From positions 1 through 13,431 of IMG/VR virus record IMGVR_UViG_2617270968_000009: DNA of 13,431 nt, one strand, 5' to 3'. The position numbers and the translations under genes are program-made. Shown one piece after another: positions 1-13,431 of this stretch. This DNA comes from a virus. Lineage: Duplodnaviria > Heunggongvirae > Uroviricota > Caudoviricetes. Each line of letters starts with the position of its first letter. Positions within the stretch are counted from its first letter, which is position 1. The notes under the pieces were generated by a model. That model ran no database searches. It saw only the letters and a program-made list of their open reading frames with translations, and was not told the DNA's origin.

Positions 1-1284
1 TTACTTCTTCGCCTCTGCAACCACTTTACTACCCACGCCGCGGTTATTGTATTCCCACATGCGGTTGTAGTTAGTGTCATTCAGATTGCGCTGTATTTCG
101 TCGTTATCATCTACGCTGCCGGTATTACCCGCAAACGGACGATTAGAGATCACCGCATCGGCCCACGGTTTAGCCGTGTTAAAACCTTCGTTGATGGCGC
201 TATCACGGATCACCACCTGACCGTTGGTATTGGCATCAACATCCAGCGAGCGGCCCAGTTGCGCCACACCATCACCGAAAGCATTGAAACGGCTGTTTAC
301 GGCGAGGAAACCGTAGTAAATGTTGGACAGCGTAGCCGGTGCAAACACATACGCTTCTTGCTGAGTACGTGAGTTCACCACGCGGAATTCGGTGTTATCG
401 AACACCACTGCGCCGCGACCAGAAACGATATCCACATCCCCTTCAATGTAGCTGTTGGTCACCAGCGTACGCGGCTGACGATTTGTTTCCAGACGGTTCT
501 GCACACCGCTGTTGGTGACAAAGAAGGTGTTCTGACGACCGAGAATGTTAACGTTGTTAATCTGTACCTGGTCACCATCAGTACGCAGTGCCACCGCCGG
601 ATGGTTACCTGCATCTACGCTATCGCCCAGCGTGTTTTCGATGGTCAGATTTTGCAGTTGCAGGCCATTGTTTTGTGACCAGAAGACCGCAGAGCAGAGA
701 ACACCGATACTGTCGCTGCGTTTGCTCTGGCAGCTATCGTACATATACCACGCTGGTTTACCTGGCATATATTTGCCGCGCGGGTTGACGTCGTGACGCC
801 AGTCGGCAGGGCTCATGCCACCATCAAGGGAAAGCCCAATCTTCACATCAATCGGTTTTTCACCTGTACCGTACAGAGTAATTCCACCCGGAGCGGCAGG
901 GACATATACCGTTCCCTGATACTCACCAGGCATCACGGCAATATACTGGCGCTTGTTGGTACGCTTGATAATTGCCGCATCTACCGCCGCCTGAATCGTG
1001 GTATGCGTTACACCTTGAGTGCCCGCCGGGCCGACAACAAAGTCAGGTTGCGCAGGCAGGGTAATCGGGGAAGGATTCCACGCTGCAGCACCTGGTGTCA
1101 GGGATGCAAAATAGTGTTGAGCATCGAAATTCTGCGCTTCTTTTGCCGACAGAATCGGGCGAGAAGAGGTACCAGGCGCGGTTTGATCAGAAGGACGTTG
1201 ATCGGGCGGGGTTGAGCTACAGGCGGTCAGCGTCACGCCAAAAGCCAATGCCAGCGCCAGACGGGAAACTGAAAATGTGTTCAC
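1..1284 (-). CDS. ybhC: YbhC-like pectinesterase-family outer-membrane lipoprotein (putative acyl-CoA thioesterase); host gene flanking the lambda attachment site
   Basis: 427-aa ORF with GTG start at 1284 and stop at 1-3; N-terminal signal peptide with lipobox LTAC; protein recognised as E. coli YbhC; lies immediately outside attL. Confidence 0.9.
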   Translation of the reverse strand: MNTFSVSRLALALAFGVTLTACSSTPPDQRPSDQTAPGTSSRPILSAKEAQNFDAQHYFASLTPGAAAWNPSPITLPAQPDFVVGPAGTQGVTHTTIQAAVDAAIIKRTNKRQYIAVMPGEYQGTVYVPAAPGGITLYGTGEKPIDVKIGLSLDGGMSPADWRHDVNPRGKYMPGKPAWYMYDSCQSKRSDSIGVLCSAVFWSQNNGLQLQNLTIENTLGDSVDAGNHPAVALRTDGDQVQINNVNILGRQNTFFVTNSGVQNRLETNRQPRTLVTNSYIEGDVDIVSGRGAVVFDNTEFRVVNSRTQQEAYVFAPATLSNIYYGFLAVNSRFNAFGDGVAQLGRSLDVDANTNGQVVIRDSAINEGFNTAKPWADAVISNRPFAGNTGSVDDNDEIQRNLNDTNYNRMWEYNNRGVGSKVVAEAKK

Positions 1285-1309
1285 AGGTTGCTCCGGGCTA
1301 TGAAATAGA

Positions 1310-1420
1310 AAAATGAATCCGTTGAAGCCTGCTTTTTTATACTAAGTTGGCATTATAAAAAAGCATTGCTTATCAATTTGTTGCAACGAACAGGTCACTA
1401 TCAGTCAAAATAAAATCATT
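1310..1420. other. attL: attL (B-O-P'): lambda core GCTTTTTTATACTAA at 1331-1345 with host B arm on the left and phage P' arm on the right
   Basis: Core sequence seen directly; right flank gttggcattataaaaaagcattgcttatcaatttgttgcaacgaacaggtcactatcagtcaaaataaaatcatt matches the lambda P' arm, with an IHF-like site (tATCAAtttgTTG) and arm-type Int sites (aggtcactat, cagtcaaaat) adjacent to the int 3' end. Confidence 0.9.
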
Positions 1421-2489
1421 ATTTGATTTCAATTTTGTCCCACTCCCTGCCTCTGTCATCACGATACTGTGATGCCATGGTGTCCGACTTATGCCCGAGA
1501 AGATGTTGAGCAAACTTATCGCTTATCTGCTTCTCATAGAGTCTTGCAGACAAACTGCGCAACTCGTGAAAGGTAGGCGGATCCCCTTCGAAGGAAAGAC
1601 CTGATGCTTTTCGTGCGCGCATAAAATACCTTGATACTGTGCCGGATGAAAGCGGTTCGCGACGAGTAGATGCAATTATGGTTTCTCCGCCAAGAATCTC
1701 TTTGCATTTATCAAGTGTTTCCTTCATTGATATTCCGAGAGCATCAACATGCAATGCTGTTGGGATGGCAATTTTTACGCCTGTTTTGCTTTGCTCGACA
1801 TAAAGATATCCATCTACGATATCAGACCACTTCATTTCGCATAAATCACCAACTCGTTGCCCGGTAACAACAGCCAGTTCCATTGCAAGTCTGAGCCAAC
1901 ATGGTGATGATTCTGCTGCTAGATAAATTTTCAGGTATTCGTCAGCCGTAAGTCTTGATCTCCTTACCTCTGATTTTGCTGCGCGAGTGGCAGCGACAGG
2001 GTTTGTTGTTATATGGCCTTCAGCTATTGCCTCTCGGAATGCATCGCTCAGTGTTGATCTGATTAACTTGGCTGACGCCGCCTTGCCCTCGTCTATGTAT
2101 CCATTGAGCATTGCCGCAATTTCTTTTGTGGTGATGTCTTCAAGTGGAGCATCAGGCAGCCCCCTCCTTATTGCTTTAATTTTGCTCATGTAATTTATGA
2201 GTGTCTTCTGCTTGATTCCTCTGCTGGCCAGGATTTTTTCGTAGCGATCAAGCCATGAATGTAACGTAACGGAATTATCACTGTTGATTCTCGCTGTCAG
2301 AGGCTTGTGTTTGTGTCCTGAAAATAACTCAATGTTGGCCTGTATAGCTTCAGTGATTGCGATTCGCCTGTCTCTGCCTAATCCAAACTCTTTACCCGTC
2401 CTTGGGTCCCTGTAGCAGTAATATCCATTGTTTCTTATATAAAGGTTAGGGGGTAAATCCCGGCGCTCATGACTTCGCCTTCTTCCCAT
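1419..2489 (-). CDS. int: Integrase, tyrosine recombinase (lambda Int)
   Basis: 356-aa ORF, ATG at 2489; near-identical to remembered lambda Int (MGRRRSHERRDLPPNLYIRNNGYYCYRDPRTGKEF... C-terminal ...SQYRDDRGREWDKIEIK with catalytic Tyr); directly beside attL. Confidence 0.97.
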   Translation of the reverse strand: MGRRRSHERRDLPPNLYIRNNGYYCYRDPRTGKEFGLGRDRRIAITEAIQANIELFSGHKHKPLTARINSDNSVTLHSWLDRYEKILASRGIKQKTLINYMSKIKAIRRGLPDAPLEDITTKEIAAMLNGYIDEGKAASAKLIRSTLSDAFREAIAEGHITTNPVAATRAAKSEVRRSRLTADEYLKIYLAAESSPCWLRLAMELAVVTGQRVGDLCEMKWSDIVDGYLYVEQSKTGVKIAIPTALHVDALGISMKETLDKCKEILGGETIIASTRREPLSSGTVSRYFMRARKASGLSFEGDPPTFHELRSLSARLYEKQISDKFAQHLLGHKSDTMASQYRDDRGREWDKIEIK

Positions 2490-2685
2490 TTCTGATCCTC
2501 TTCAAAAGGCTACCTGTTACTGGTCGATTTAAGTCAACCTTTACCGCTGATTCGTGGAACAGATACTCTCTTCCATCCTTAACCGGAGGTGGGAATATCC
2601 TGCATTCCCGAACCCATCGACGAACTGTTTCAAGGCTTCTTGGACGTCGCTGGCGTGCGTTCCACTCCTGAAGTGTCAAGTACAT
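2467..2685 (-). CDS. xis: Excisionase (lambda Xis)
   Basis: 72-aa ORF MYLTLQEWNARQRRPRSLETVRRWVRECRIFPPPVKDGREYLFHESAVKVDLNRP..., overlapping the int start by 23 nt as in lambda. Confidence 0.95.
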   Translation of the reverse strand: MYLTLQEWNARQRRPRSLETVRRWVRECRIFPPPVKDGREYLFHESAVKVDLNRPVTGSLLKRIRNGKKAKS

Positions 2686-2712
2686 CGCAAAGTCTCCGCA
2701 ATTACACGCAAG

Positions 2713-2732
2713 AAAAAACCGCCATCAGGCGG
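2713..2732 (-). terminator. Intrinsic terminator-like hairpin (ccgccatcaggcgg on the plus strand, followed on the minus strand by a T6 run)
   Basis: GC stem 2719-2732 with U-tract 2713-2718 when read on the minus strand; overlaps the stop of the orf55-like ORF, upstream of xis. Confidence 0.5.
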
Positions 2733-2892
2733 CTTGGTGTTCTTTCAGTTCTTCAATTCGAATATTGGTTACGTCTGCATGCGCTATCTGCGCCCATATC
2801 ATCCAGTGGTTATAGCAGTCGTTGATGTCCTCCGCTTCGATAACCCTGTTGAATGGCTCTCCATTCCATTCACCTGTGACTCGGAAGTGCAT
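2725..2892 (-). CDS. Small hypothetical protein (55 aa) in the xis-ea8.5 interval, lambda orf55-like
   Basis: Hand translation from ATG at 2892: MHFRVTGEWNGEPFNRVIEAEDINDCYNHWMIWAQIAHADVTNIRIEELKEHQAA*; absent from the ORF track because it is under 60 aa; same position as the small ORF annotated between xis and ea8.5 in lambda. Confidence 0.5.
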   Translation of the reverse strand: MHFRVTGEWNGEPFNRVIEAEDINDCYNHWMIWAQIAHADVTNIRIEELKEHQAA

Positions 2893-2980
2893 TTATCATC
2901 TCCAAAAAACAAAACCCGCCGTAGCGAGTTCAGATAAAATAAATCCCCGCGAGTGCGAGGATTGTTATGTAATATTGGGT

Positions 2981-3262
2981 TTAATCATCTATATGTTTTG
3001 TACAGAGAGGGCAAGTATCGTTTCCACCGTACTCGTGATAATAATTTTGCACGGTATCAGTCATTTCTCGCACATTGCAGAATGGGGATTTGTCTTCATT
3101 AGACTTATAAACCTTCATGGAATATTTGTATGCCGACTCTATATCTATACCTTCATCTACATAAACACCTTCGTGATGTCTGCATGGAGACAAGACACCG
3201 GATCTGCACAACATTGATAACGCCCAATCTTTTTGCTCAGACTCTAACTCATTGATACTCAT
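2981..3262 (-). CDS. ea8.5: Ea8.5 protein (lambda early-left accessory gene, function unknown)
   Basis: 93-aa ORF, ATG at 3262, Cys/His-rich; length and position match lambda ea8.5. Confidence 0.85.
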   Translation of the reverse strand: MSINELESEQKDWALSMLCRSGVLSPCRHHEGVYVDEGIDIESAYKYSMKVYKSNEDKSPFCNVREMTDTVQNYYHEYGGNDTCPLCTKHIDD

Positions 3263-3464
3263 TTATAAACTCCTTGCAATGTATGTCGTTTCAGCTAAAC
3301 GGTATCAGCAATGTTTATGTAAAGAAACAGTAAGATAATACTCAACCCGATGTTTGAGTACGGTCATCATCTGACACTACAGACTCTGGCATCGCTGTGA
3401 AGACGACGCGAAATTCAGCATTTTCACAAGCGTTATCTTTTACAAACCCGTATTCCTGCTCATA

Positions 3465-4016
3465 TCACTCTCCTTTGATGCGAATGCCTGTTGCAATGCT
3501 GTTTATGATGCTGTCAGTGCATGGGGTAGAAAGCTGGGCATCTCCAGCAATTCTCATGACCTCAACATCTGCATATCGAATACCGAGGTGTATCAGACCG
3601 GCTATACCTGACTTAAGCCGAGCATTTTCCATAAACAGATCCTTTGCCCGCTGTTTTTCTGCCTCAAGCTCAACGCGCAACTTCCCTACCGTTAACGCAA
3701 TCTCCTCGTTCTCCTGGTCGCGGCGTTTGATGTATTGCTGGTTTCTTTCCAGCTCATCCAGCAGCGCCAAGACGGTAGCGGGATTGGCTGCGGCGATGAA
3801 TTCAGCATTGGCCTGCTGTTCCATTTGGAAATCTTCATCGAAACCGCTTTCTGGATGCGCTCCTTCAATTCTGCAAATAGGAATATATCCAGCAACTTCA
3901 CGATGAATTAGCGCATCATCACCATCAAATCGGCTCTCTCCATATTCGAGCGACCACTCACCACACGTTGCTTTTTCTGCCTTGGCCCGCAGTGCCTGAG
4001 AGTTAATTTCGCTCAC
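3465..4016 (-). CDS. ea22: Ea22-like protein (coiled-coil rich early-left accessory protein)
   Basis: 183-aa ORF with GTG start at 4016 (MSEINSQALRAKAEK...); position after ea8.5 and length (lambda Ea22 is 182 aa) match. Confidence 0.8.
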   Translation of the reverse strand: MSEINSQALRAKAEKATCGEWSLEYGESRFDGDDALIHREVAGYIPICRIEGAHPESGFDEDFQMEQQANAEFIAAANPATVLALLDELERNQQYIKRRDQENEEIALTVGKLRVELEAEKQRAKDLFMENARLKSGIAGLIHLGIRYADVEVMRIAGDAQLSTPCTDSIINSIATGIRIKGE

Positions 4017-4234
4017 TTCGAACCTCTCTGTTTACTGATAAGCTCCAGATCTTCCTGGCAACTTGCACAAGTCCGACAACCCTGAACGGCCAGGCGTCTT
4101 CGCTCATCTATGGGATCGCCACACTCACAACAATGAGTGGCAGATATAGCCTGGTGGTTCAGGCGGCGCATTTTTATTGCTGTATTGCGCTGTAATTCTT
4201 CGATTTCTGATGCTGAATCAATGATGTCTGCCAT
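4013..4234 (-). CDS. TraR/DksA-family C4 zinc-finger protein (lambda Orf73-like)
   Basis: 73-aa ORF with two CxxC pairs (CCECGDPIDERRRLAVQGCRTCASCQ) typical of the TraR/DksA C4 zinc finger; 4-nt overlap with the ea22 start. Confidence 0.75.
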   Translation of the reverse strand: MADIIDSASEIEELQRNTAIKMRRLNHQAISATHCCECGDPIDERRRLAVQGCRTCASCQEDLELISKQRGSK

Positions 4235-4283
4235 CTTTCATTAATCCCTGAATTGTTGGTTAATACGCTTGAGGGTGAATGCG

Positions 4284-4310
4284 AATAATAAAAAAGGAGC
4301 CTGTAGCTCC
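4284..4310 (-). terminator. Intrinsic terminator-like hairpin between the orf61-position ORF and the TraR-like ORF
   Basis: Plus strand ggagc-ctgta-gctcc (4296-4310) preceded by aataataaaaaa, so the minus strand reads hairpin then TTTTTTATTATT. Confidence 0.5.
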
Positions 4311-4332
4311 ATGATGATTTTGTTTTTCATGC

Positions 4333-4614
4333 TCACCGTTCCTTAAAGACGCCGTTTAACATGCCGATCGCCAGGCTTAAATGAGTCGGTGTGAATCCCA
4401 TCAGCGTTACCGTTTCGTGGTGCTTCTTCAGTACGCTACGGCAAATGTCATCGACGTTTTTATCCGGAAACTGCTGTCTGGCTTTTTTGATTTCAGAATT
4501 AGCCTGACGGGCAATGCTGCGAAGGGCGTTTTCCTGCTGAGGTGTCACTGAACAAGCCCCATGTCGGCAAGCATAAGCACACAGAATATGAAGCCCGCTG
4601 CCAGAAAAATGCAT
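4333..4614 (-). CDS. Hypothetical protein at the lambda orf61 position (start uncertain)
   Basis: 93-aa ORF from ATG at 4614. An in-frame ATG at 4644 overlaps the orf63 3' end by 20 nt (the lambda orf61/orf63 arrangement) but is followed by an in-frame TGA at 4615-4617. An internal GTG overlapping the stop of a 27-aa alternate-frame ORF is another possible start. Confidence 0.45.
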   Translation of the reverse strand: MHFSGSGLHILCAYACRHGACSVTPQQENALRSIARQANSEIKKARQQFPDKNVDDICRSVLKKHHETVTLMGFTPTHLSLAIGMLNGVFKER

Positions 4615-4624
4615 TCAGTGGTTG

Positions 4625-4816
4625 TCATACCTGGTCTCTCTCATCTGCTTCTGCTTTCGCCACCATCATTTCCAGCTTTTGTGAAAGGGATGCGGCTAAC
4701 GTATGAAATACTTCGTCTGTTTCTACTGGTATTGGCACAAACCTGACTCCAATTTGAGCGAGGCTATGTGCCATCTCGATACTCGTTCTTAACTCAACGG
4801 GAGATGCTTTGTGCAT
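4625..4816 (-). CDS. Orf63-like small protein (lambda early-left region)
   Basis: 63-aa ORF, ATG at 4816 preceded by GGGGAG Shine-Dalgarno on the minus strand; length and position match lambda orf63. Confidence 0.7.
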   Translation of the reverse strand: MHKASPVELRTSIEMAHSLAQIGVRFVPIPVETDEVFHTLAASLSQKLEMMVAKAEADERDQV

Positions 4817-4985
4817 ACAGCTCCCCGTTTATTATTTATCTCCTCAGCCAGCCGCTGTGCTTTCAGGGGATTTCGGATAACAGAAAGGCCGGGAAATACC
4901 CAGCCTCGCTTTGTAACGGAGTAGACGAAAGTGATCGCGCCTAACAGGCGCAACAGTAACCAGCATAAATCAGGCTGCGGCCAAA

Positions 4986-5162
4986 ATGGCGCGGACAGGA
5001 ATCTTAGTTATTGATGGTAAGGTCTGGCGAACGGTGTATTACCGGTTCGCTACCAGGGAAGAACGGGAAGGAAAGGTGAGCACGAATCTGATTTTCAAGG
5101 AGTGTCGCCAGAGTGCCGCGATGAAGCGGGTGTTGGCATTTTATCGCGGCAATTTTCAATAG
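4986..5162 (+). CDS. Possible small ORF (58 aa), function unknown
   Basis: Hand translation MARTGILVIDGKVWRTVYYRFATREEREGKVSTNLIFKECRQSAAMKRVLAFYRGNFQ*; no convincing Shine-Dalgarno; lies at the boundary between the lambda-like arm and the AT-rich insert. Confidence 0.3.
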   Translation: MARTGILVIDGKVWRTVYYRFATREEREGKVSTNLIFKECRQSAAMKRVLAFYRGNFQ

Positions 5163-5198
5163 ACTATGTACATAAAAATATCATTTTTTAATACATGT

Positions 5199-5390
5199 CT
5201 AATTATTGGACGAAATTGGTTTTTGCTTTGGTTTAGTTAGCCTAGCAATCAAGCCAGAGGCAATAATGATGATCCAAGCAATTTGATGCAATGCTACTCC
5301 AATATAAGAACCTTTATAGATAATAAAGGCATAGATCGCTAGAAACGAAATAAATATCCATAACGAAAGTTGATAAATTTTGGCGCGCAT
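5199..5390 (-). CDS. Small hydrophobic (predicted two-helix membrane) protein, about 63 aa
   Basis: Track ORF 5199-5405 begins at a TTG; the first ATG is at 5390 (MRAKIYQLSLWIFISFLAIYAFIIYKGSYIGVALHQIAWIIIIASGLIARLTKPKQKPISSNN). Two hydrophobic stretches, basic C-terminus, AT-rich codon usage, weak Shine-Dalgarno. Confidence 0.45.
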   Translation of the reverse strand: MRAKIYQLSLWIFISFLAIYAFIIYKGSYIGVALHQIAWIIIIASGLIARLTKPKQKPISSNN

Positions 5391-5646
5391 ATTTAATCCA
5401 ATCAATCAGAAAGACGAGTAATCATAGAGGTACTATCACCCGGGTAACTATTGCTATTATGAACGGATAGGATAGAGGCTTCAATAACATATGCATCAAG
5501 TATGATGGAATATGTAGATGAAAATGACTTGTGTCAAATTTGTGGAAATGAGTACCATGTTTCTCTGAAATTGATGTCGTTAATGGCTAGTGATAGTGAA
5601 CTTTTTTACTTTATAATTCCTTTGGTTATAACAATAAGGTAAATTT

Positions 5647-6207
5647 ATGAAGAAGATAATATTATTAGCCATGATTATTGGTTCTTTAACAGGTTGCGCT
5701 AGTGTGCCACCATTGAATTTTTCAACACCTAACGTGGGAGTTAGCCAGAAAAAAATAGATGCTGAAATTAAGTCATTAACGGTATCACTTGCTCGTCCAG
5801 ATGAGCAGAAAGGGGATATCACTGCTGGTATGGAGGCTATAACTCCAATTTGGCGTGAATCTTTGCAGGAAGCACTCGACCGAATGACTATTTTTCGTGA
5901 TAGTTCACCAAATACGGTTAGCTTAAATGTTAAAGTGTTGGCTCTTGACGTTCCTGCTTTTGGTGTTTCAATGACAACTAAAGCAATTGCAAGGTATGAA
6001 ATAATCAACCGTGCGAATGGTGATATTATATATACGCAGGATATTGAGTCTACCGGTACTGTTCCAGCCAGTTACGCATTCTACGGTATTGTTCGAGCAC
6101 GCGAATCTGTTAATCGCGCGGTGCAAAACAACATAACGCAGTTCTTGCAAGCATTAGAAAGTGTTGATCTTTCTCGTCCAATGTTTCCTGTTAGGGTAGC
6201 TAAATGA
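5647..6207 (+). CDS. Lipoprotein of unknown function (186 aa, signal peptide plus lipobox LTGC)
   Basis: ATG at 5647 with AAGG Shine-Dalgarno 7 nt upstream; N-terminus MKKIILLAMIIGSLTGC is a typical lipoprotein signal; residue after Cys is Ala (no inner-membrane retention Asp); stop overlaps the next start (ATGA at 6204-6207). Confidence 0.8.
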   Translation: MKKIILLAMIIGSLTGCASVPPLNFSTPNVGVSQKKIDAEIKSLTVSLARPDEQKGDITAGMEAITPIWRESLQEALDRMTIFRDSSPNTVSLNVKVLALDVPAFGVSMTTKAIARYEIINRANGDIIYTQDIESTGTVPASYAFYGIVRARESVNRAVQNNITQFLQALESVDLSRPMFPVRVAK

Positions 6208-6656
6208 AGCGATTATTCGTAATTGCTCCACTCTTAGTGTTGGTTGGATGCGCACAAAATATATCGCCAAATAGTTATTCTGTTGGCTCTGTGGGCATGG
6301 TTAATCGAACTATCGCTGGTACAGTTATTAGTGCCAGGGGGGTTGATATCAGTGGGACTTCCGCGTTAGGCGGGACTGCTGGGGCTGCCGTGGGGGCAAC
6401 CGCTGGTTCTGCGCTTGGTGGGGGAGTTCGTTCTAATATCGTTGGTGCCGTTGGTGGTGCGGTCATTGGTGGTATTGCCGGGGCAGCAATCGAATCTTCA
6501 GCAACAAAACAAACAGGCATGGAATATGTTGTCGAAACTGAGAATGGGAATTTAATGACCATTGTTCAAGGCAAAGATCCGTTATTTACTCAAGGAAGTA
6601 AGGTCCTTGTTTTATACGGAAACCCTTCTCGCATAATAACAGACCCGCGTCACTAA
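6204..6656 (+). CDS. Glycine-zipper outer-membrane lipoprotein, SlyB/Pcp-like (150 aa)
   Basis: Lipoprotein signal MKRLFVIAPLLVLVGC; central Gly/Ala-rich glycine-zipper segment (GGTAGAAVGATAGSALGGGV...GAVGGAVIGGIAGAAI) followed by a C-terminal beta-rich tail, the architecture of SlyB/Pcp-family lipoproteins; translationally coupled to the upstream lipoprotein. Confidence 0.8.
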   Translation: MKRLFVIAPLLVLVGCAQNISPNSYSVGSVGMVNRTIAGTVISARGVDISGTSALGGTAGAAVGATAGSALGGGVRSNIVGAVGGAVIGGIAGAAIESSATKQTGMEYVVETENGNLMTIVQGKDPLFTQGSKVLVLYGNPSRIITDPRH

Positions 6657-6748
6657 CATACCTTTTGATTTTGTAAAATCAATTCGTAATAATAAAGTCA
6701 TCGGAGCTTGAACAACTCCGGTGACTTCTGCGCTAAACGGGGACGTTT

Positions 6749-6850
6749 ATGCGCACATACAATCCAAACTCTCTTCTCCCTTCACAGATGCAGAAATGCA
6801 CCTGCGATTTTTTGTATCCTGAGTTTGACCTCTGCGGAGGTGAAGCGTGA
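6749..6850 (+). CDS. Small Cys-containing ORF (33 aa) translationally coupled to ninB/ybcN (possibly ylcH-like)
   Basis: Hand translation [33 protein letters not shown]; stop TGA 6848-6850 overlaps the GTG start of the next gene (GTGA); position matches the small gene upstream of ybcN in DLP12, but the sequence is not confirmed from memory. Confidence 0.45.
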
Positions 6851-7302
6851 ACCTCCCACAAGACGGCATCAAATTACATCGCGGCAACTTCACCGCTATC
6901 GGCCAGCAGATCCAGCCTTATCTGGAGGACGGAAAATGCTTTCGCATGGTGCTTAAACCGTGGCGCGAGAGACGCAGTCTTTCCCAGAATGCACTCAGCC
7001 ACATGTGGTACAGCGAAATCAGTGAATACCTCATCAGCAGGGGTAAAACGTTCGCCACTCCAGCTTGGGTAAAAGATGCTCTCAAACACACATATCTCGG
7101 TTATGAAACCAAAGACCTGGTTGATGTCGTAACCGGTGATATCACCACTATCCAGTCGTTACGCCATACCTCCGATCTTGATACCGGAGAGATGTATGTC
7201 TTCCTGTGTAATGTTGAAGCCTGGGCGATGAATATTGGCTGCCACCTGACTATTCCGCCGAGCTGCGAGTTCCAGCTGCTGCGCGATAAGCAGGAGGCGT
7301 AA
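6847..7302 (+). CDS. ybcN: NinB-family recombination protein (DLP12 YbcN-like, DNA base-flipping protein)
   Basis: 151-aa ORF with GTG start and GGAGGTG Shine-Dalgarno; sequence recognised as E. coli YbcN/NinB-like ([13 protein letters not shown] motif region). Confidence 0.85.
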
Positions 7303-7472
7303 TGGCTACACCGCTTATTCGTGTCATGAACGGGCACATTTACAGAGTACCAAATCGTCGTAAGCGTAAACCTGAGCTGAAGCCTTCCGAAATACCAACA
7401 CTGCTCGGATATACCGCCAGCCTGGTTGATAAAAAATGGTTGCGACTGGCAGCAAGGAGGAATCATGGCTGA
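7302..7472 (+). CDS. ninE: NinE-like small protein (56 aa)
   Basis: Hand translation [56 protein letters not shown]; start overlaps the ybcN stop (TAATG); conserved nin-region position. Confidence 0.7.
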   Translation: MATPLIRVMNGHIYRVPNRRKRKPELKPSEIPTLLGYTASLVDKKWLRLAARRNHG

Positions 7473-7755
7473 TTTGAGAAAAGCAGCGCGTGGTCGGGAA
7501 TGCCAGGTAAGAATCCCTGGCGTATGTAATGGCAACCCTGAAACGTCTGTACTGGCACATATCCGGCTGGCTGGATTGTGCGGCACCGGTATTAAACCGC
7601 CAGACCTTATTGCCACCATTGCCTGTTCTGCCTGTCACGCCGAAATCGACCGCCGCACGCATTTTGTCGATGCTGAGCACGCAAAAGAATGCGCGCTGGA
7701 AGGTATGGCGAGAACGCAGGTTATCTGGCTGAAAGAGGGGGTAATCAAGGCGTGA
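7465..7755 (+). CDS. ybcO: YbcO-like nin-region protein (Cys/His-rich, putative nuclease, 96 aa)
   Basis: ATG at 7465 with AGGAGG Shine-Dalgarno 5 nt upstream ([37 protein letters not shown]...); the track's longer 109-aa version starts upstream inside ninE. Confidence 0.85.
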
Positions 7756-8114
7756 ATACTTACCACATCACACTACCCTGGCCTCCGAGCAATAATCGCT
7801 ATTACCGCCATAATCGCGGGCGCACGCACATCAGCGCAGAGGGGCAGGCATACCGCGATAACGTCGCCCGAATCATTAAAAACGCAATGCTGGATATCGG
7901 CCTGGCTATGCCTGTGAAAATCCGCATTGAGTGCCACATGCCGGATCGCCGTCGCCGTGACCTGGATAATCTGCAAAAAGCCGCTTTTGACGCACTCACT
8001 AAAGCAGGTTTCTGGCTGGATGATGCTCAGGTCGTTGATTACCGCGTTGTGAAGATGCCTGTTACCAAAGGTGGGAGGCTGGAACTGACCATCACCGAAA
8101 TGGGGAATGAATGA
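7752..8114 (+). CDS. rusA: RusA Holliday-junction resolvase (120 aa)
   Basis: GTG start overlapping the ybcO stop (GTGA); protein [119 protein letters not shown] recognised as RusA. Confidence 0.9.
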
Positions 8115-8251
8115 TGTTTGAGTTTAATATGGCAGAACTTCTTCGCCACCGCTGGGGGCGTCTGCGCTTATATCGTTTCCCCGGTTCTGTTTTGACCGAT
8201 TACCGAATACTGAAGAATTACGCCAAAACCCTGACAGGAGCAGGAGTATGA
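8111..8251 (+). CDS. ylcG: YlcG-like small protein (46 aa)
   Basis: Hand translation [46 protein letters not shown]; start overlaps the rusA stop (ATGA); same position as ylcG in DLP12. Confidence 0.65.
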
Positions 8252-8336
8252 AGTCAGAGATAACAATCAACTAATACTGTTTTGTTGATTTTTGCTTGTA
8301 ATTGGCGTTCTGGTCTGATTTTTGTGGAGTAAGTTG

Positions 8337-8720
8337 ATGCGTGATATTCAGATGGTTCTTGAGCGTTGGGGATCGTGGGCGGCTAATAATCATGAAGATG
8401 TGACCTGGTCGTCCATTGCCGCCGGTTTTAAGGGATTAATTACTTCAAAAGTAAAATCTCGCCCGCAATGTTGTGACGATGACGCGATGATCATTTGCGG
8501 GTGCATGGCCCGTCTGAAAAAGAACAACAGCGATTTGCACGATTTATTAGTAGATTATTATGTAGTCGGTATGACATTCATGTCACTGGCAGGTAAGCAT
8601 TGCTGCTCTGATGGTTATATCGGGAAAAGGTTACAGAAGGCTGAGGGTATAATTGAAGGGATGTTAATGGCATTAGATATCCGGTTAGAGATGGATATCG
8701 TTGTTAATAACTCTAATTAA
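8337..8720 (+). CDS. quuD: Late-gene antiterminator Q (DLP12 QuuD-type, 127 aa)
   Basis: ATG at 8337 with GGAG 7 nt upstream; protein [26 protein letters not shown]... with Cys-rich segment ([17 protein letters not shown]); position immediately upstream of the lysis region. Confidence 0.8.
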
Positions 8721-8747
8721 TATGCCAGTTGTTTACTAAAAGTTATT

Positions 8748-8771
8748 AAAAATGGGGCGTTGAGACGCCCC
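8748..8771 (-). terminator. Intrinsic terminator for the minus-strand nmpC transcript
   Basis: Plus strand aaaaat-ggggcgt-tgag-acgcccc; on the minus strand this is a 7-bp GC stem followed by ATTTTT. Confidence 0.5.
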
Positions 8772-8859
8772 CAAAAATAAAGGGTAATATATAACAGAAG
8801 GTTTATATAGTTAGAAGCAAGGTTGTGCTTCTAAAGGAAGTGGCTTGAGGGAGCCACTT

Positions 8860-8900
8860 ATATGTTGGGGAGGCAACGCCTCCCGCAACATATCTTTTTC
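8860..8900 (+). terminator. Strong intrinsic terminator on the plus strand, downstream of Q (possible tR' or operon-end terminator)
   Basis: 15-bp interrupted stem atatgttg-gggaggc / gcctccc-(g)-caacatat (8860-8893) followed by CTTTTTC; ends 10 nt before the nmpC stop codon. Confidence 0.55.
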
Positions 8901-8909
8901 GTAATCAGA

Positions 8910-10007
8910 TTAGAACTGGTAAACCAGACCTACAGCAACGATGTCATCAGTGCTTACACCGAGTGCTTTAGTGAAGTCATTTTTGTCAAGCAGGTTGATT
9001 TTGTAATCAACGAAAGTAGACATATTTTTGTTGAAGTAATAGGTTGCACCTACATCAACATATTTGACTAAGTCCTGATCGCCCCATACTCCAAGATCCT
9101 TACCTTTAGATTGCAGGTAAGCAACGGACGGACGCAGACCGAAATCGAACTGATATTGTGCAACAGCTTCGAAGTTTTGAGCTTTATTAGCAACGAAGTG
9201 ATCAGCAAATACAGTCATATTCTGGGTTTCAGAATAGGTAGTGGCCAGGTAAATGTTGTTAGCGTCATATTTCAGACCTGCGGCCCAAACTTCTGCATTT
9301 TTACCGGAAGCAAATACTTCAGGAAGAACTTTCCCTGCATTAACTTGAGTGTCGGTACGATCAGATTTCGCATAAGTTGCACCGATACCGAATCCTTCGT
9401 ATTCATAGGTAGCAGAGAAACCGAAGCCATCACCGTTACCTTCAGTGTAGTTATCGAAATCGCTACGATCGTTTTTGCCTTGGTACTGAGCAGCAAAGTT
9501 CAGACCATCAACCAGACCAAAGAAGTCGTTGTTACGATAGGTTGCAACACCAGTGGTGCGACCAGTCATGAACACATCTGTTTGGGTCCAGGTATCGCCA
9601 CCGAATTCTGGCAGAACGTCAGTCCACGCACCGATGTCGTATGCTACACCGTAGTTACGGCCGTAATCGATGGAGCCGTAGTCACCGAATTTCAGGCCAG
9701 CGAAGGCAAGACGGGTTTTATCTTTGGAGGAACCTTGAGATTCAGCGCGGTTGCCTTTGAATTCATATTCCCACTGACCGAAACCAGTCAGTTGATCGTT
9801 GATTTGGGTTTCACCTTTGAAGCCAAGACGGGCATAAGTAGTATCACCATCATCTGCATCATTAGAGGAGAAGTAGTGCTTAGCATTAACTTTCCCGTAC
9901 AGATCCAGCTTGTTACTGTCTTTATTATAAATTTCAGCTGCCTGAGCAGACATCGCCATCAGTACTGATGCAGCTACAGCAGAAATTGCCACTGTTAATT
10001 TTTTCAT
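8910..10007 (-). CDS. nmpC: Outer-membrane general porin NmpC/OmpD-type (intact, 365 aa)
   Basis: Signal peptide [23 protein letters not shown] then AEIYNKD..., aromatic/Gly-rich beta-barrel repeats, C-terminal ...VGLVYQF; AAGGG Shine-Dalgarno upstream; uninterrupted (no IS element). Confidence 0.92.
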
Positions 10008-10376
10008 CGTGAGCCCTTTTTTTTGAACTATTATTAAAAAATGATGTCACTGCGCGATAAATATTCATCTAATCAATGTGATTATTTCAAGATGTAAGTT
10101 TTGGTTTCTCGTTTGATTTGTGAAGTAGATCTCTATTTTTATCTGAACTTTTTTCTATCGAATCCTATTCATAGCTCTTGGCTGAATAAAAATAAATCTA
10201 TTAGCCAATTTATATTAACGGCTGTTATTTATAAGCGCTCTATAATTTGAAGGTTCAATTTAAATCAGCTAAAATAACACTGGAAATTATTTGTTGGTTA
10301 TTTGTTGAGATTTGCTTATGTATTTGTAGTGGTGTTTTCAATACTCGGTAGCATTCTCGCAAATATCATTTAGTGG

Positions 10377-10405
10377 TTTACGTACGTAAAAAATTGGTTA
10401 TGCTG
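10377..10405 (+). promoter_or_regulatory. Candidate sigma70 promoter (TTTACG, 16-nt spacer, TATGCT), possible late promoter pR'
   Basis: Hexamers each match consensus at 4 of 6 positions; located about 30 nt upstream of a strong terminator and about 180 nt upstream of the holin gene, the geometry expected for pR'-tR'. Confidence 0.25.
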
Positions 10406-10434
10406 TTAAGAGTGGTTACTTCGTCACACAGCTT

Positions 10435-10467
10435 AAACCCGCCGTCGAGCGGGTTTTTCCATTTTTT
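10435..10467 (+). terminator. Intrinsic terminator upstream of the lysis cassette (candidate tR')
   Basis: Stem aaacccgc / gcgggttt with loop cgtcga (10435-10456) followed by TTTTTCCATTTTTT. Confidence 0.55.
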
Positions 10468-10579
10468 GAGTCTCGATATTAGCTGATAACCCAATACCTG
10501 AGTTATTCACTGACTCCGAGTCTGTTACGTTTCGTAGTATTCCCTCAATTTACACCCGCTTTGTCTGCGAGGTGGGGTT

Positions 10580-10795
10580 ATGAAATCCATGGATAAGTTA
10601 ACAACGGGTGTCGCCTATGGCACCTCAGCAGGTAGTGCCGGGTACTGGTTTTTACAGCTGCTAGATAAAGTCACGCCCTCACAGTGGGCGGCAATTGGAG
10701 TGCTGGGTAGCCTGGTATTTGGCCTGCTGACGTACCTGACAAACCTTTATTTCAAGATTAAAGAAGATAAGCGTAAGGCTGCGAGAGGTGAATAA
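10580..10795 (+). CDS. essD: Class II holin / pinholin, S21-type, with dual-start motif MKSM (71/68 aa)
   Basis: 71-aa [74 protein letters not shown]; two transmembrane segments; Met1-Lys2-Ser3-Met4 dual start; immediately upstream of the endolysin gene. Confidence 0.9.
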
Positions 10796-11292
10796 TGTCG
10801 CCATCATTACGCAAGGCTGTAGCAGCTGCTATTGGTGGTGGGGCTGTTGCCATAGCGTCTGTGCTCATCACTGGTCCGAGTGGTGACGATGGTCTGGAAG
10901 GTGTCAGCTACATACCATATAAAGATATCGTTGGCGTATGGACTGTATGTCACGGGCATACAGGAAAAGACATCATTCCCGGTAAAACGTATACCGAAGC
11001 AGAATGCAAAGCCCTCCTGAATAAAGACCTTGCCACTGTCGCCAGACAAATTAACCCGTACATCAAAGTCGATATACCGGAAACAACGCGCGGCGCTCTT
11101 TACTCGTTCGTCTACAACGTGGGTGCTGGCAATTTCAGAATATCGACGCTTCTTCGCAAAATAAACCAGGGTGATATCAAAGGCGCATGTGATCAGCTAC
11201 GTCGCTGGACATATGCTGGCGGTAAGCAATGGAAAGGTCTCATGACTCGTCGTGAGATTGAGCGTGAAATCTGTTTGTGGGGTAAGCAATGA
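10795..11292 (+). CDS. rrrD: SAR endolysin (signal-anchor-release lysozyme, R21-type, 165 aa)
   Basis: N-terminal weakly hydrophobic Gly/Ala-rich SAR segment ([20 protein letters not shown]) followed by a lysozyme domain; start overlaps the holin stop; recognised as DLP12 RrrD / phage 21 R-like. Confidence 0.9.
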
Positions 11293-11750
11293 ACAGAGTA
11301 ACCGCGATTATCTCCGCTCTGGTTATCTGCATCATCGTCTGCCTGTCATGGGCTGTTAATCATTACCGTGATAACGCCATTACCTACAAAGCCCAGCGCG
11401 ACAAAAATGCCAGAGAACTGAAGCTGGCGAACGCGGCAATTACTGACATGCAGATGCGCCAGCGTGATGTTGCTGCACTGGATGAAAAATACACGAAGGA
11501 GTTAGCTAATGCGAAAGCTGAAAATGATGCTCTGCGTGATGATGTTGCCGCTGGTCGTCGTCGGTTGCACATCAAAGCAGTCTGTCAGTCAGTGCGTGAA
11601 GCCACCACCGCCTCCGGCGTGGATAATGCAGCCTCCCCCCGACTGGCAGACACCGCTGAACGGGATTATTTCACCCTCAGAGAGAGGCTGATCACTATGC
11701 AAAAACAACTGGAAGGAACCCAGAAGTATATTAATGAGCAGTGCAGATAG
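11289..11750 (+). CDS. Rz: Rz inner-membrane spanin (i-spanin, 153 aa)
   Basis: [60 protein letters not shown]... near-identical to remembered lambda Rz; ATGA overlap with the endolysin stop. Confidence 0.92.
11509..11691 (+). CDS. Rz1: Rz1 outer-membrane lipoprotein spanin (o-spanin), embedded in the +1 frame of Rz
   Basis: 60-aa [27 protein letters not shown]... with lipobox VVGC and proline-rich mature region ([15 protein letters not shown]), wholly inside Rz. Confidence 0.88.
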
Positions 11751-11753
11751 AGC

Positions 11754-11771
11754 TGCCCATATCGATGGGCA
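11754..11771. terminator. Hairpin between convergent Rz and bor (tgcccat-atcg-atgggca), no U-tract on either strand
   Basis: 7-bp stem with 4-nt loop directly after the Rz stop; position fits a bidirectional transcript-end or stability element. Confidence 0.35.
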
Positions 11772-11781
11772 ACTCATGCAA

Positions 11782-12075
11782 TTATTGTGAGCAATACACA
11801 CGCGCTTCCAGCGGAGTATAAATGCCTAAAGTAATAAAACCGAGCAATCCATTTACGAATGTTTGCTGGGTTTCTGTTTTAACAACATTTTCTGCGCCGC
11901 CACAAATTTTGGCTGCATCAACAGTTTTCTCCTGTCCAATTCCCGAAACGAAGAAATGATGGGTGATGGTTTCCTTTGGTGTTACTGCTGTAGGTTTGTT
12001 TCCAACAGTAAACGTCTGTTGAGCACATCCTGTAATAAGCATTGCCAGAGCGGCAGAAAACAACATTTTTTTCAT
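11782..12075 (-). CDS. bor: Bor lipoprotein (serum-resistance moron, 97 aa)
   Basis: True start is the ATG at 12075 (MKKMLFSAALAMLITGC lipobox) with AGGA Shine-Dalgarno; the track ORF extends upstream to 12123; recognised as lambda Bor. Confidence 0.92.
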   Translation of the reverse strand: MKKMLFSAALAMLITGCAQQTFTVGNKPTAVTPKETITHHFFVSGIGQEKTVDAAKICGGAENVVKTETQQTFVNGLLGFITLGIYTPLEARVYCSQ

Positions 12076-12275
12076 CTTATTATCCTGCATTGTTAAAAAC
12101 GGCAGAATCCTATGTGACAACAATTAAACGATAGTTAAATGGATTGATGAAAATTAAAACTATATAGGTGTACGCTCAGACTATTGGAGGAAGTTGGGGA
12201 CACTCAGAATCCTGTGGAATGAAATAAACCGGTCTATCCGTCTATTACCCTTTTAGCTGCGCTGTATCGTCGCCG

Positions 12276-12340
12276 TATTCCCGCATTAACCATGACCGTA
12301 GCCCGACGGGGAATTCCTTCTGCGTGAGTGTGCGGGAATA
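12276..12340. repeat. Perfect 10-bp inverted repeat tattcccgca (12276-12285) / tgcgggaata (12331-12340) with 45-bp spacer
   Basis: Read directly from the sequence; lies in the non-coding interval between bor and the RHH-like gene; spacer contains ggggaattcc. Confidence 0.6.
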
Positions 12341-12437
12341 ATCAAAAACGATGCACACCGGGTTTTACTGTGCTGACAGACGCAGGGTTACCCTCATAGT
12401 CGCTTTTCCGGTGCGATGGTGGAAGAAACCGGGATGT

Positions 12438-12632
12438 TCATCCATCATCACTTTGGATTGATGTATATGCTCTCTTTTCTGACGTTAGTCTCCGACGGCA
12501 GGCTTCAATGACCCAGGCTGAGAAATTCCCGGACCCTTTTTGCTCAAGAGCGATGTTAATTTGTTCAATCATTTGGTTAGGAAAGCGGATGTTGCGGGTT
12601 GTTGTTCTGCGGGTTCTGTTCTTCGTTGACAT
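12438..12632 (-). CDS. ylcI: Small ribbon-helix-helix-like protein (64 aa; DLP12 YlcI / lambda right-end ORF homolog)
   Basis: ATG at 12632; MSTKNRTRRTTTRNIRFPNQMIEQINIALEQKGSGNFSAWVIEACRRRL... shows basic N-tail, short beta strand, then two helices (Arc/MetJ-like RHH pattern); last gene before cos. Confidence 0.7.
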   Translation of the reverse strand: MSTKNRTRRTTTRNIRFPNQMIEQINIALEQKGSGNFSAWVIEACRRRLTSEKRAYTSIQSDDG

Positions 12633-12779
12633 GAGGTTGCCCCGTATTCAGTGTCGCTGATTTGTATTGTCTGAAGTTGTTTTTACGTTAAGTTGATGCA
12701 GATCAATTAATACGATACCTGCGTCATAATTGATTATTTGACGTGGTTTGATGGCCTCCACGCACGTTGTGATATGTAG

Positions 12780-13020
12780 ATGATAATCATTATCACTTTA
12801 CGGGTCCTTTCCGGTGATCCGACAGGTTACGGGGCGGCGACCTCGCGGGTTTTCGCTATTTATGAAAATTTTCCGGTTTAAGGTGTTTCCGTTCTTCTTC
12901 GTCGTAACTTAATGTTTTTATTTAAAATACCCCCTGAAAAGAAAGGAAACGACAGGTGCTGAAAGCGGGCTTTTTGGCCTTTGTCGTTTCCTTTCTCTGT
13001 TTTTGTCCGTGGAATGAACA
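12780..13020. other. cos: cos site: cosQ / cosN / cosB; 12-nt cohesive-end sequence GGGCGGCGACCT at 12832-12843
   Basis: Sequence ...cgggtcctttccggtgatccgacaggttacg | gggcggcgacctcgcgggttttcgctatttatgaaaattttccggtttaagg... matches the lambda right-end/left-end junction; Nu1 begins 177 nt downstream. Confidence 0.93.
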
Positions 13021-13431
13021 ATGGAAGTCAACAAAAAGCAGCTGGCTGACATTTTCGGTGCGAGTATCCGTACCATTCAGAACTGGCAGGAACAGGGAAT
13101 GCCCGTTCTGCGAGGCGGTGGCAAGGGTAATGAGGTGCTTTATGATTCTGCCGCCGTCATAAAATGGTATGCCGAAAGGGATGCTGAAATTGAGAACGAA
13201 AAGCTGCGCCGGGAAGTTGAAGAACTGCGGCAGGCCAGCGAGACAGATCTCCAGCCAGGGACTATTGAGTACGAACGCCATCGACTTACGCGTGCGCAGG
13301 CCGACGCACAGGAGCTGAAAAATGCCAGAGACTCCGCTGAAGTGGTGGAAACCGCATTCTGTACTTTCGTGCTGTCGCGGATCGCAGGTGAAATTGCCAG
13401 TATTCTCGACGGGATCCCCCTGTCGGTGCAG
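13021..13431 (+). CDS. nu1: Terminase small subunit Nu1 (N-terminal 137 aa; truncated by window end)
   Basis: MEVNKKQLADIFGASIRTIQNWQEQGMPVLRGGGKGNEVLYDSAAVIKWYAERDAEIENEKLRREVEELRQ... near-identical to remembered lambda Nu1; no stop codon before the window end. Confidence 0.95.
   Translation, partial: MEVNKKQLADIFGASIRTIQNWQEQGMPVLRGGGKGNEVLYDSAAVIKWYAERDAEIENEKLRREVEELRQASETDLQPGTIEYERHRLTRAQADAQELKNARDSAEVVETAFCTFVLSRIAGEIASILDGIPLSVQ

Follow-up and report, generated by a model that had tools for sequence, protein, structure and literature searches.

The DNA analysed here, a stretch of 13,431 nucleotides (nt) that makes up positions 1 to 13,431 of the IMG/VR virus record IMGVR_UViG_2617270968_000009 and is referred to below as the window, is a defective lambdoid prophage of Escherichia coli that carries two overlapping lipoprotein genes, here termed LP1 and LP2. 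The two genes form a compact, horizontally moving cassette, carried both as phage cargo and in non-phage chromosomal sites. LP1 represents a new lipoprotein family that has no Pfam model and whose predicted structure is of the LptE/PqiC/PelC type, while LP2 is, judged by its sequence, a full-length, divergent paralogue of SlyB in a subfamily of its own. We read the pair as a mobile envelope cassette in which two cooperating outer-membrane lipoproteins, borne by phages as a moron, may act on a conserved envelope target, and we place the probability of this reading at about one half.

Organization and linkage of the gene pair

The first-pass annotation, made from the letters of the window and a list of its open reading frames (ORFs), described two plus-strand lipoprotein genes joined by an ATGA overlap, and the sequence confirms both frames at the lengths listed in Table 1. 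Lipoproteins of E. coli are sorted by the Lol system according to the residue that follows the lipidated cysteine (position +2), where Ala, as opposed to Asp, fits delivery to the outer membrane. LP1 and LP2 both have Ala and no Asp at this position, in agreement with the outer-membrane direction proposed for them in that annotation.

To define how firmly the two genes are linked, 76 genome loci and 39 viral contigs found with an LP1 profile were surveyed. An LP2 homologue lies directly downstream of LP1 in 69 of the genome loci and 33 of the viral contigs (102/115 in total), and the Luteimonas exception among the remainder is only a missed gene call. Of 98 scored pairs, 80 overlap by 4 nt (ATGA, GTGA or TTGA), in various hosts and over guanine-plus-cytosine (GC) contents of 0.43-0.67; in nearly all others the overlap is -1, or the genes are separated by at most 4 nt. 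The divergence of LP1 is correlated with that of LP2 (Pearson 0.51; Spearman 0.28).

Both are real genes rather than chance ORFs, because they have many homologues (512 for LP1 and 581 for LP2), a low ratio of nonsynonymous to synonymous substitution (dN/dS), and an invariant lipobox cysteine. The median dN/dS within Stenotrophomonas, 0.04 for LP1 and 0.06 for LP2, denotes strong purifying selection; between genera dS is saturated. In LP2 the cysteine is invariant in 41 family members, and the +2 residue is mostly Ala or Thr across loci.

When the E. coli copy is compared with that of Klebsiella oxytoca, nucleotide homology starts exactly at position 5647, where the ATG of LP1 lies, and fades out close to the stop codon of LP2; no conserved third gene was found beside the pair among the surveyed loci. 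A neighbour of the helix-turn-helix or cI-like type was considered as a third member and rejected, as it recurs in just 18 Xanthomonadales loci. Oxalobacter paraformigenes has a degraded copy (locus L082, 6121-6734), in which one ORF fuses LP1-like and LP2-like C-terminal segments beside a masked run of N, as if the middle of the cassette had been deleted.

LP1 defines a lipoprotein family with a predicted LptE/PqiC/PelC-type fold

The LP1 family comprises 512 word-indexed matches and, at 50% identity and E ≤ 1e-3, 970 clusters. Identity to LP1 is 58-87% across Klebsiella, Bordetella, Xanthomonas, Stenotrophomonas, Luteimonas and alphaproteobacteria, and ~46% in Verrucomicrobia. The family is characterized by the invariant lipobox cysteine, a strongly conserved tether motif that follows the lipobox (PPLNFSxPNVG), and a conserved C-terminal helix. 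LP1 has no match in Pfam (E ≤ 0.1), NCBIfam or PADLOC, and a Pfam search of 42 distant relatives likewise returned no family.

The structural model of LP1 is confident and adopts an alpha/beta sandwich of the LptE/PqiC/PelC lipoprotein type, with only 6-15% identity to the structural matches; against the BFVD viral structure library there was no meaningful match (template modelling score ≤ 0.37). The first-pass view of this protein, a lipobox without a recognizable family, therefore stands with respect to the lipobox and to Pfam, and is superseded in that the protein can be placed by its predicted fold. According to the model, LP1 shares its three-dimensional fold with DUF330/PqiC (PF03886) and LptE, with PqiC relatives appearing nearest structurally. 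A tether motif and a C-terminal helix of its own distinguish LP1 from DUF330/PqiC, LptE, PelC and CsgG-type proteins.

Two names attached to LP1 in databases were examined and rejected. The name 'UDP-GlcNAc acyltransferase' is at odds with a protein that has a lipoprotein signal peptide, an alpha/beta fold and no hexapeptide or acyltransferase Pfam match; enzymes of the LpxA type are cytoplasmic and are built as a left-handed beta-helix of hexapeptide repeats, and the acyltransferase name in many LP1 entries is a propagated misannotation. The name 'YajG family', given by PGAP in some genomes, fails because LP1 has no match to PF03923, against 3.4e-52 for E. coli YajG. An hhalign comparison of the LP1 profile with YajG covers 53 N-terminal columns only, comprising the signal peptide and ~35 further residues, with a probability of 76%. 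YajG (Lipoprotein_16, PF03923) and LP1 are alike in being outer-membrane lipoproteins of ~190 residues.

LP2 is a divergent relative of SlyB

Phmmer aligns residues 2-149 of LP2 with residues 3-155 of E. coli SlyB (PDB 7ojf; another SlyB entry is 7ojg) at E 1.3e-14, practically end to end, with 34% identity over 147 columns, and a Foldseek search with the LP2 model returned SlyB as the sole significant match (E 9.6e-8). The SlyB-like character noticed in the first-pass annotation is thereby borne out. The AlphaFold2 model places strands at residues 35-49, helices at 55-71 and 75-101, and further strands at 103-146. SlyB and LP2 have in common the lipobox, a beta-domain into which a glycine-zipper hairpin of two helices is inserted, and a similar size (155 and 150 residues). 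They differ in genetic setting: SlyB is a solo core gene located by slyA, whereas LP2 is mobile, patchily distributed and nearly always preceded by LP1. Relatives of LP2 are 63-77% identical to it and LP2 is ~34% identical to SlyB, which sets them apart as a distinct subfamily.

Other glycine-zipper lipoproteins with two transmembrane segments, namely YfgH, OsmB and YiaD, have been proposed to form SlyB-like rings and to stabilize the outer membrane under stress (preprint 10.64898/2025.12.22.696046). LP2 is much nearer to SlyB than to any of these. The yfgH-yfgI genes were considered as a chromosomal parallel of the pair and rejected, because YfgI is a DUF5384 protein unrelated to LP1.

Distribution and mobility of the cassette

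A survey of 5,426 complete E. coli genomes revealed the 1.5-kb insert, with ≥99% identity, in 280 (~5%), in single copy and always on the chromosome, in some cases within defective prophages. Among 50,697 deposited phages, only PhiR30_1 carries it, and no plasmid was found to carry it apart from a remote match of 26% in Vibrio. In 85 of 95 loci the GC content of the pair is below that of the flanking DNA, and outside E. coli the median difference is 5 points.

Each of the lineages examined has a neighbourhood of its own. The pair is accompanied by umuDC, SRAP and cold-shock genes in Klebsiella; by toxin-antitoxin and transposase remnants and an N-antiterminator in Bordetella; by an integrase/primase island in Edaphovirga; by an SRAP-recombinase fusion and HigBA-like genes in Alcaligenaceae; by core genes and a TonB-dependent receptor in Stenotrophomonas; and by the pga operon in Xanthomonas. 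In phages it occupies three positions: the ren/ninB slot of lambdoid phages, a site between the tape-measure and minor-tail genes (locus L104), and a site next to a cI-like repressor, where CII- and O-like genes are also present (locus L107). As these are unrelated positions in three phage architectures, the cassette appears to have been captured repeatedly by phages in the manner of a moron, and the co-occurrence of the pair in mobile elements, for which the first-pass annotation had proposed a survey, is found. Instead of the arrangement that this annotation named as contrary to its reading, housekeeping genes of the core genome held together at a fixed locus, the pair shows patchy distribution, host-foreign composition and variable neighbours.

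Several further observations concern individual loci. Klebsiella oxytoca (L006, 6925-7596, minus) and an Alcaligenaceae genome (L130, 8440-9795, minus) both have a gene with an SRAP domain directly upstream of the pair and in the reverse orientation, which in the Alcaligenaceae genome is fused to a serine-recombinase domain; this neighbour could hint at how the cassette moves. A TonB-dependent receptor gene is located directly upstream of the pair in two Stenotrophomonas genomes (L126, 6929-9691, and L019, 3651-5783), with different genes downstream, an adjacency that may be fortuitous, as this genus has many such receptors, or may point to a client protein. The solo LP1 genes of Photorhabdus (L052, ~7440-8050; L055, ~6960-7320) are followed by a CRISPR-like repeat array whose translation repeats 'VHCRTGSLE'. 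Finally, a locus in a record of Nocardiopsis yanglingensis (L033) has the identity values, the type of overlap and the GC of the loci from Stenotrophomonas maltophilia; it is probably Stenotrophomonas contamination, because of this resemblance and because outer-membrane lipoproteins are implausible in an actinomycete.

The cargo slot in the prophage

The prophage has an integration site that adjoins ybhC. Its 5' genes are int, xis, Ea22-like, TraR/DksA, DUF1382 and DUF1317 (minus strand), followed by truncated ren, LP1, LP2, orf33/ylcH, ybcN, ninE, ybcO and rusA, and then by ylcG, quuD, the porin gene, essD-rrrD-rzpD and iss/bor. The cargo insert spans ~5163-6660 and is missing from related lambdoid phages (Table 1). 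Homology to phage 82, PhiR34_1, 4A7 and others restarts at ~6660-6664, which is 4-8 nt past the LP2 stop codon. The slot between ren and ybcN contains, in these phages, ybcK-ybcL-ybcM, an alpha/beta hydrolase gene, or nothing, and is regarded as a cargo hotspot for this reason.

Two properties expected of a moron are present: related phages keep the ybcN flank from ~6660 but have no cassette upstream of it, and composition differs, with GC of 0.32-0.43 over 5100-6300 against 0.45-0.55 in the flanks. The description of the region as a cargo insert in a prophage accessory slot is thus upheld by phages that share the flank and carry other genes in the slot. The low GC claimed for the insert as a whole applies to 5100-6300; the LP2 gene has a GC of 0.49-0.50, so that the AT-rich part is confined to the left two-thirds of the insert.

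The same annotation had located the insert between orf63 and the nin block, a placement that proved to be an artefact of a deletion. The deletion junction at ~4943, mapped by the break in homology, joins the DUF1382/DUF1317 (orf63-type) genes to ren, and the deletion took out exo/bet/gam through cI, cro, O and P together with the first ~25 codons of ren. Strain BS74R-D carries an identical prophage, in which RefSeq labels this gene 'protein ren, partial, missing N-terminus'. Full-length ren is present 5' of the cassette in PhiR30_1 and PT109, and the native slot in intact relatives is between ren and ybcN/ninB, as it is in 280/280 cassette-bearing E. coli genomes. The orf63-type/ren junction is common to only 10 of the 5,426 complete E. 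coli genomes, and the window therefore comes from a small clone, such as that of strain BS74R-D.

Table 1. Coordinates of the cassette and adjoining features in the window
Feature	Positions	Strand	Remarks
Truncated ren, N-terminus gone	4944-5162	+	Left flank of cargo slot
AT-rich left part of insert, GC ~0.32-0.35	5163-5646		E. coli copy only; not conserved in other genera
Small hydrophobic ORF	5199-5405	-	Resembles a two-helix membrane peptide; from ORF list
Candidate sigma-70 promoter, GTGATA-16-TATAAT	5590-5617	+	30 nt upstream of LP1; consensus match only
LP1	5647-6207	+	186 aa; signal peptide 1-16; lipobox L-T-G-C, Cys17; +2 Ala
ATGA start/stop overlap of LP1 and LP2	6204-6207	+	Translational-coupling geometry
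LP2	6204-6656	+	150 aa; lipobox L-V-G-C, Cys16; +2 Ala
LP2 glycine-zipper helical hairpin, residues ~52-101	6357-6506	+	Predicted membrane-inserted part; Pfam, model and SlyB alignment
Right junction of insert and start of conserved nin block	6660-6725	+	Homology to phage 82; outside cassette

Two smaller ORFs lie within the left part of the insert. The minus-strand ORF has 68 residues if read from a TTG codon and 63 from the ATG at 5390; it is annotated as a 63-residue coding sequence in PhiR30_1 and left unannotated by PGAP, and has no match in Pfam, PHROG or PADLOC. It was rejected as a member of the cassette, with tblastn matches only in 20 E. coli viral loci. A plus-strand ORF of 46 residues (5502-5642) stops 5 nt before the LP1 start and is probably not a gene; it has no family match and is unannotated in all records examined.

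No convincing terminator was found after LP2. To the right of the cassette, ahead of orf33/ylcH and ybcN, are a conserved promoter-like site (6665-6693) and an inverted repeat of 29 nt (6697-6725, gtcatcggag...ctccggtgac); the phage 82 record annotates -35/-10 signals and, for the repeat, a 'possible regulator-binding site' at matching positions. The hairpin was rejected as a terminator of the cassette, being part of the conserved nin block.

Farther along, the prophage contains an intact gene for an NmpC/OmpD-type porin (8910-10007, minus), beyond which lies a very AT-rich stretch (10050-10350, GC 0.29), and a gene for an Iss/Bor serum-survival lipoprotein (11782-12075, minus). With LP1 and LP2, this amounts to four envelope-directed accessory genes in one defective prophage.

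Proposed function and alternative explanations

In the reading that we favour, the cassette would be carried in E. coli as a moron in the variable cargo slot that extends from ren to ybcN/ninB of lambdoid prophages. By homology to SlyB, LP2 would insert its glycine-zipper helical hairpin into the outer membrane and, as published work on SlyB and YfgH suggests, may assemble SlyB-like rings that enclose lipid or outer-membrane proteins; rings of 10-13 subunits are typical of the SlyB family. LP1, which the overlapping stop and start codons would keep in fixed proportion to LP2, may be its dedicated partner, acting as an adaptor, cap or client and giving the ring a property that chromosomal SlyB lacks. 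The target would most likely be a conserved envelope component, whether lipid, lipopolysaccharide, or part of the core machinery (BamA or LptD, for example); the strong conservation of both proteins from one bacterial class to another suggests a conserved target and a general barrier or stress function. A cell that carries the cassette would probably benefit from an outer membrane whose barrier is altered or more robust, in a way comparable to the effect of Bor/Iss. By analogy, Bor/Iss, Cor and T5 Llp are small lipoproteins of temperate or lytic phages that alter the host envelope, through serum resistance or receptor blocking, as may the pair; they differ in being single, phage-restricted and unrelated in sequence and family, whereas LP1-LP2 is a two-protein system common outside phages too. 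A toxin/immunity or lysis role was set aside, since neither the domains nor the neighbours nor the composition gave any sign of it.

Several observations weigh against this reading. About 11% of loci have LP1 but no LP2, namely those of Photorhabdus and Budvicia and a few viral contigs; in some of these contigs a different small secreted protein or lipoprotein comes next. LP1 can therefore act alone or with other partners. The confidence of the LP2 model is moderate, with a predicted local distance difference test score of 70.9, and the glycine-zipper Pfam matches of residues 55-103 fall under the curated cut-offs, with 21.1 bits for PF05433 (cut-off 24.2) and 16.9 bits for PF13488 (cut-off 25); many close members of the LP2 family have a precomputed PF13488 match. 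The phospholipid-binding residues of SlyB, I65, V69 and F73 (preprint 10.64898/2026.06.08.730324), are not kept in the LP2 family, where they correspond to T/A/G/S, A and V/T/A (T58, A62 and T66 in the window), the first two being small or polar throughout the family, in an alignment that may be off by one or two residues in this Gly-rich stretch. The hydrophobicity of the two helices is also reversed relative to SlyB, with 0.75 against 1.16 for helix 1 and 1.34 against 0.61 for helix 2. LP2 may therefore not behave like SlyB. With respect to expression, promoter-like matches in the region, including the candidate upstream of LP1, occur at the count expected by chance; no PhoP box, as would mark the PhoP-dependent promoter typical of the SlyB family, was matched in 5406-5646, and matches across the window are at chance level, in a pattern scan that is a weak test. 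In intact phages the cassette lies within the pR delayed-early transcript, a location that would also fit a role in lytic growth. As pR is deleted in the prophage of the window, any expression from this lysogen would need a local promoter.

The same location in the pR early transcript of lambdoid phages bears on superinfection exclusion by receptor masking, in which the pair, in a manner similar to Cor or T5 Llp, would cage or block an outer-membrane protein that serves as phage receptor, protecting the lysogen or, in lytic growth, sparing progeny phage from being wasted on cell debris. Independent capture of the cassette by three phage architectures, the presence of other envelope morons (porin, Iss/Bor) in the same prophage, and the known ability of SlyB to enclose outer-membrane proteins, as it does BamA in the SlyB13-BamA complex of 7ojf, are all in keeping with such a role. 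We nevertheless consider it unlikely, because conservation across classes and the frequent non-phage contexts point to a conserved target: identity is 60-87% across gamma-, beta- and alphaproteobacteria with a dN/dS of ~0.05, unlike fast-evolving receptor-specific exclusion proteins, and many copies reside in non-phage chromosomal contexts. Comparison with known systems points the same way. There is no similarity to Cor, Llp or an annotated exclusion PHROG, nor to other characterized phage lipoprotein families, and no PADLOC match to a defence or exclusion profile; the only PHROG matches of the pair, phrog_12521 and phrog_13877, are both of unknown function.

TraT of the F-plasmid offers a structural analogy. 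It is an outer-membrane lipoprotein borne by a mobile element, with an LptE-like core and two membrane helices, that forms a ring, confers surface exclusion and complement resistance, and has been co-opted several times by mobile elements from chromosomes. LP1 and LP2 could amount to a split TraT, in which the LptE-like core and the two membrane helices, carried by TraT in a single chain, would be supplied on separate chains and form a TraT-like ring for surface exclusion, serum resistance or both. This we hold to be improbable; a single chain with two inserted transmembrane helices and a PF05818 match, which mark TraT members, were not found. A related conjecture, speculative and doubtful, is that LP1 and LP2 build one hetero-oligomeric ring, an LP2 helical palisade capped or lined by LP1, that would serve as a two-component analogue of TraT and a mobile surface shield. 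If true, such a ring would have travelled among many proteobacteria on their mobile elements, at least three phage lineages among these, and would screen the cell surface from phages, from conjugation partners, and from complement or antimicrobial peptides. The pair would then be a hitherto unrecognized, widespread mobile module for envelope exclusion, and LP2 the first SlyB-family protein with a dedicated partner.

The predicted resemblance of LP1 to the DUF330/PqiC lipoproteins, which belong to MCE lipid-transport systems, leads to another possibility, that LP1 docks onto a host intermembrane lipid transporter while LP2 handles mislocalized phospholipid, so that the lipid asymmetry of the outer membrane is adjusted. 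LP1, however, is not matched in sequence by the DUF330 model of Pfam, LP2 does not have the phospholipid-binding residues of SlyB, and none of the MCE, Pqi, Mla, Lpt (lptD), Pel or curli genes lies beside the pair in the annotated contexts examined, all of which makes this explanation decidedly improbable. It is also conceivable that the two lipoproteins act independently and are merely co-transcribed, or that the cassette is a passenger in E. coli without benefit to phage or host. The loci with LP1 alone and the only moderate rank correlation between the divergences of the two proteins would agree with this. Near-universal linkage, a 4-nt overlap kept over GC contents of 0.43-0.67, strong purifying selection on both genes, and the persistence of the cassette at ≥99% identity in 280 E. 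coli genomes, defective prophages among them, argue to the contrary and render it very improbable.

Significance

No paper on the LP1-LP2 pair, the LP1 family or PhiR30_1 was found in the literature. SlyB homologues on mobile elements such as megaplasmids have already been noted, but without a partner. SlyB-type lipoproteins have only recently come to be seen as stress-induced organizers of the outer membrane, and have until now been treated as solo chromosomal genes. The cassette described here represents a separate SlyB subfamily with an obligate-looking partner from a new family, and differs from SlyB exactly at the lipid-contacting positions. It moves across bacterial classes and has been repeatedly taken up by temperate phages, and its analysis corrects two misleading database names for LP1. 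If a complex of LP1 and LP2 forms, the mechanism of SlyB would be extended to a transferable two-component form, and envelope remodelling of this kind would be added to the functions of lysogenic conversion.

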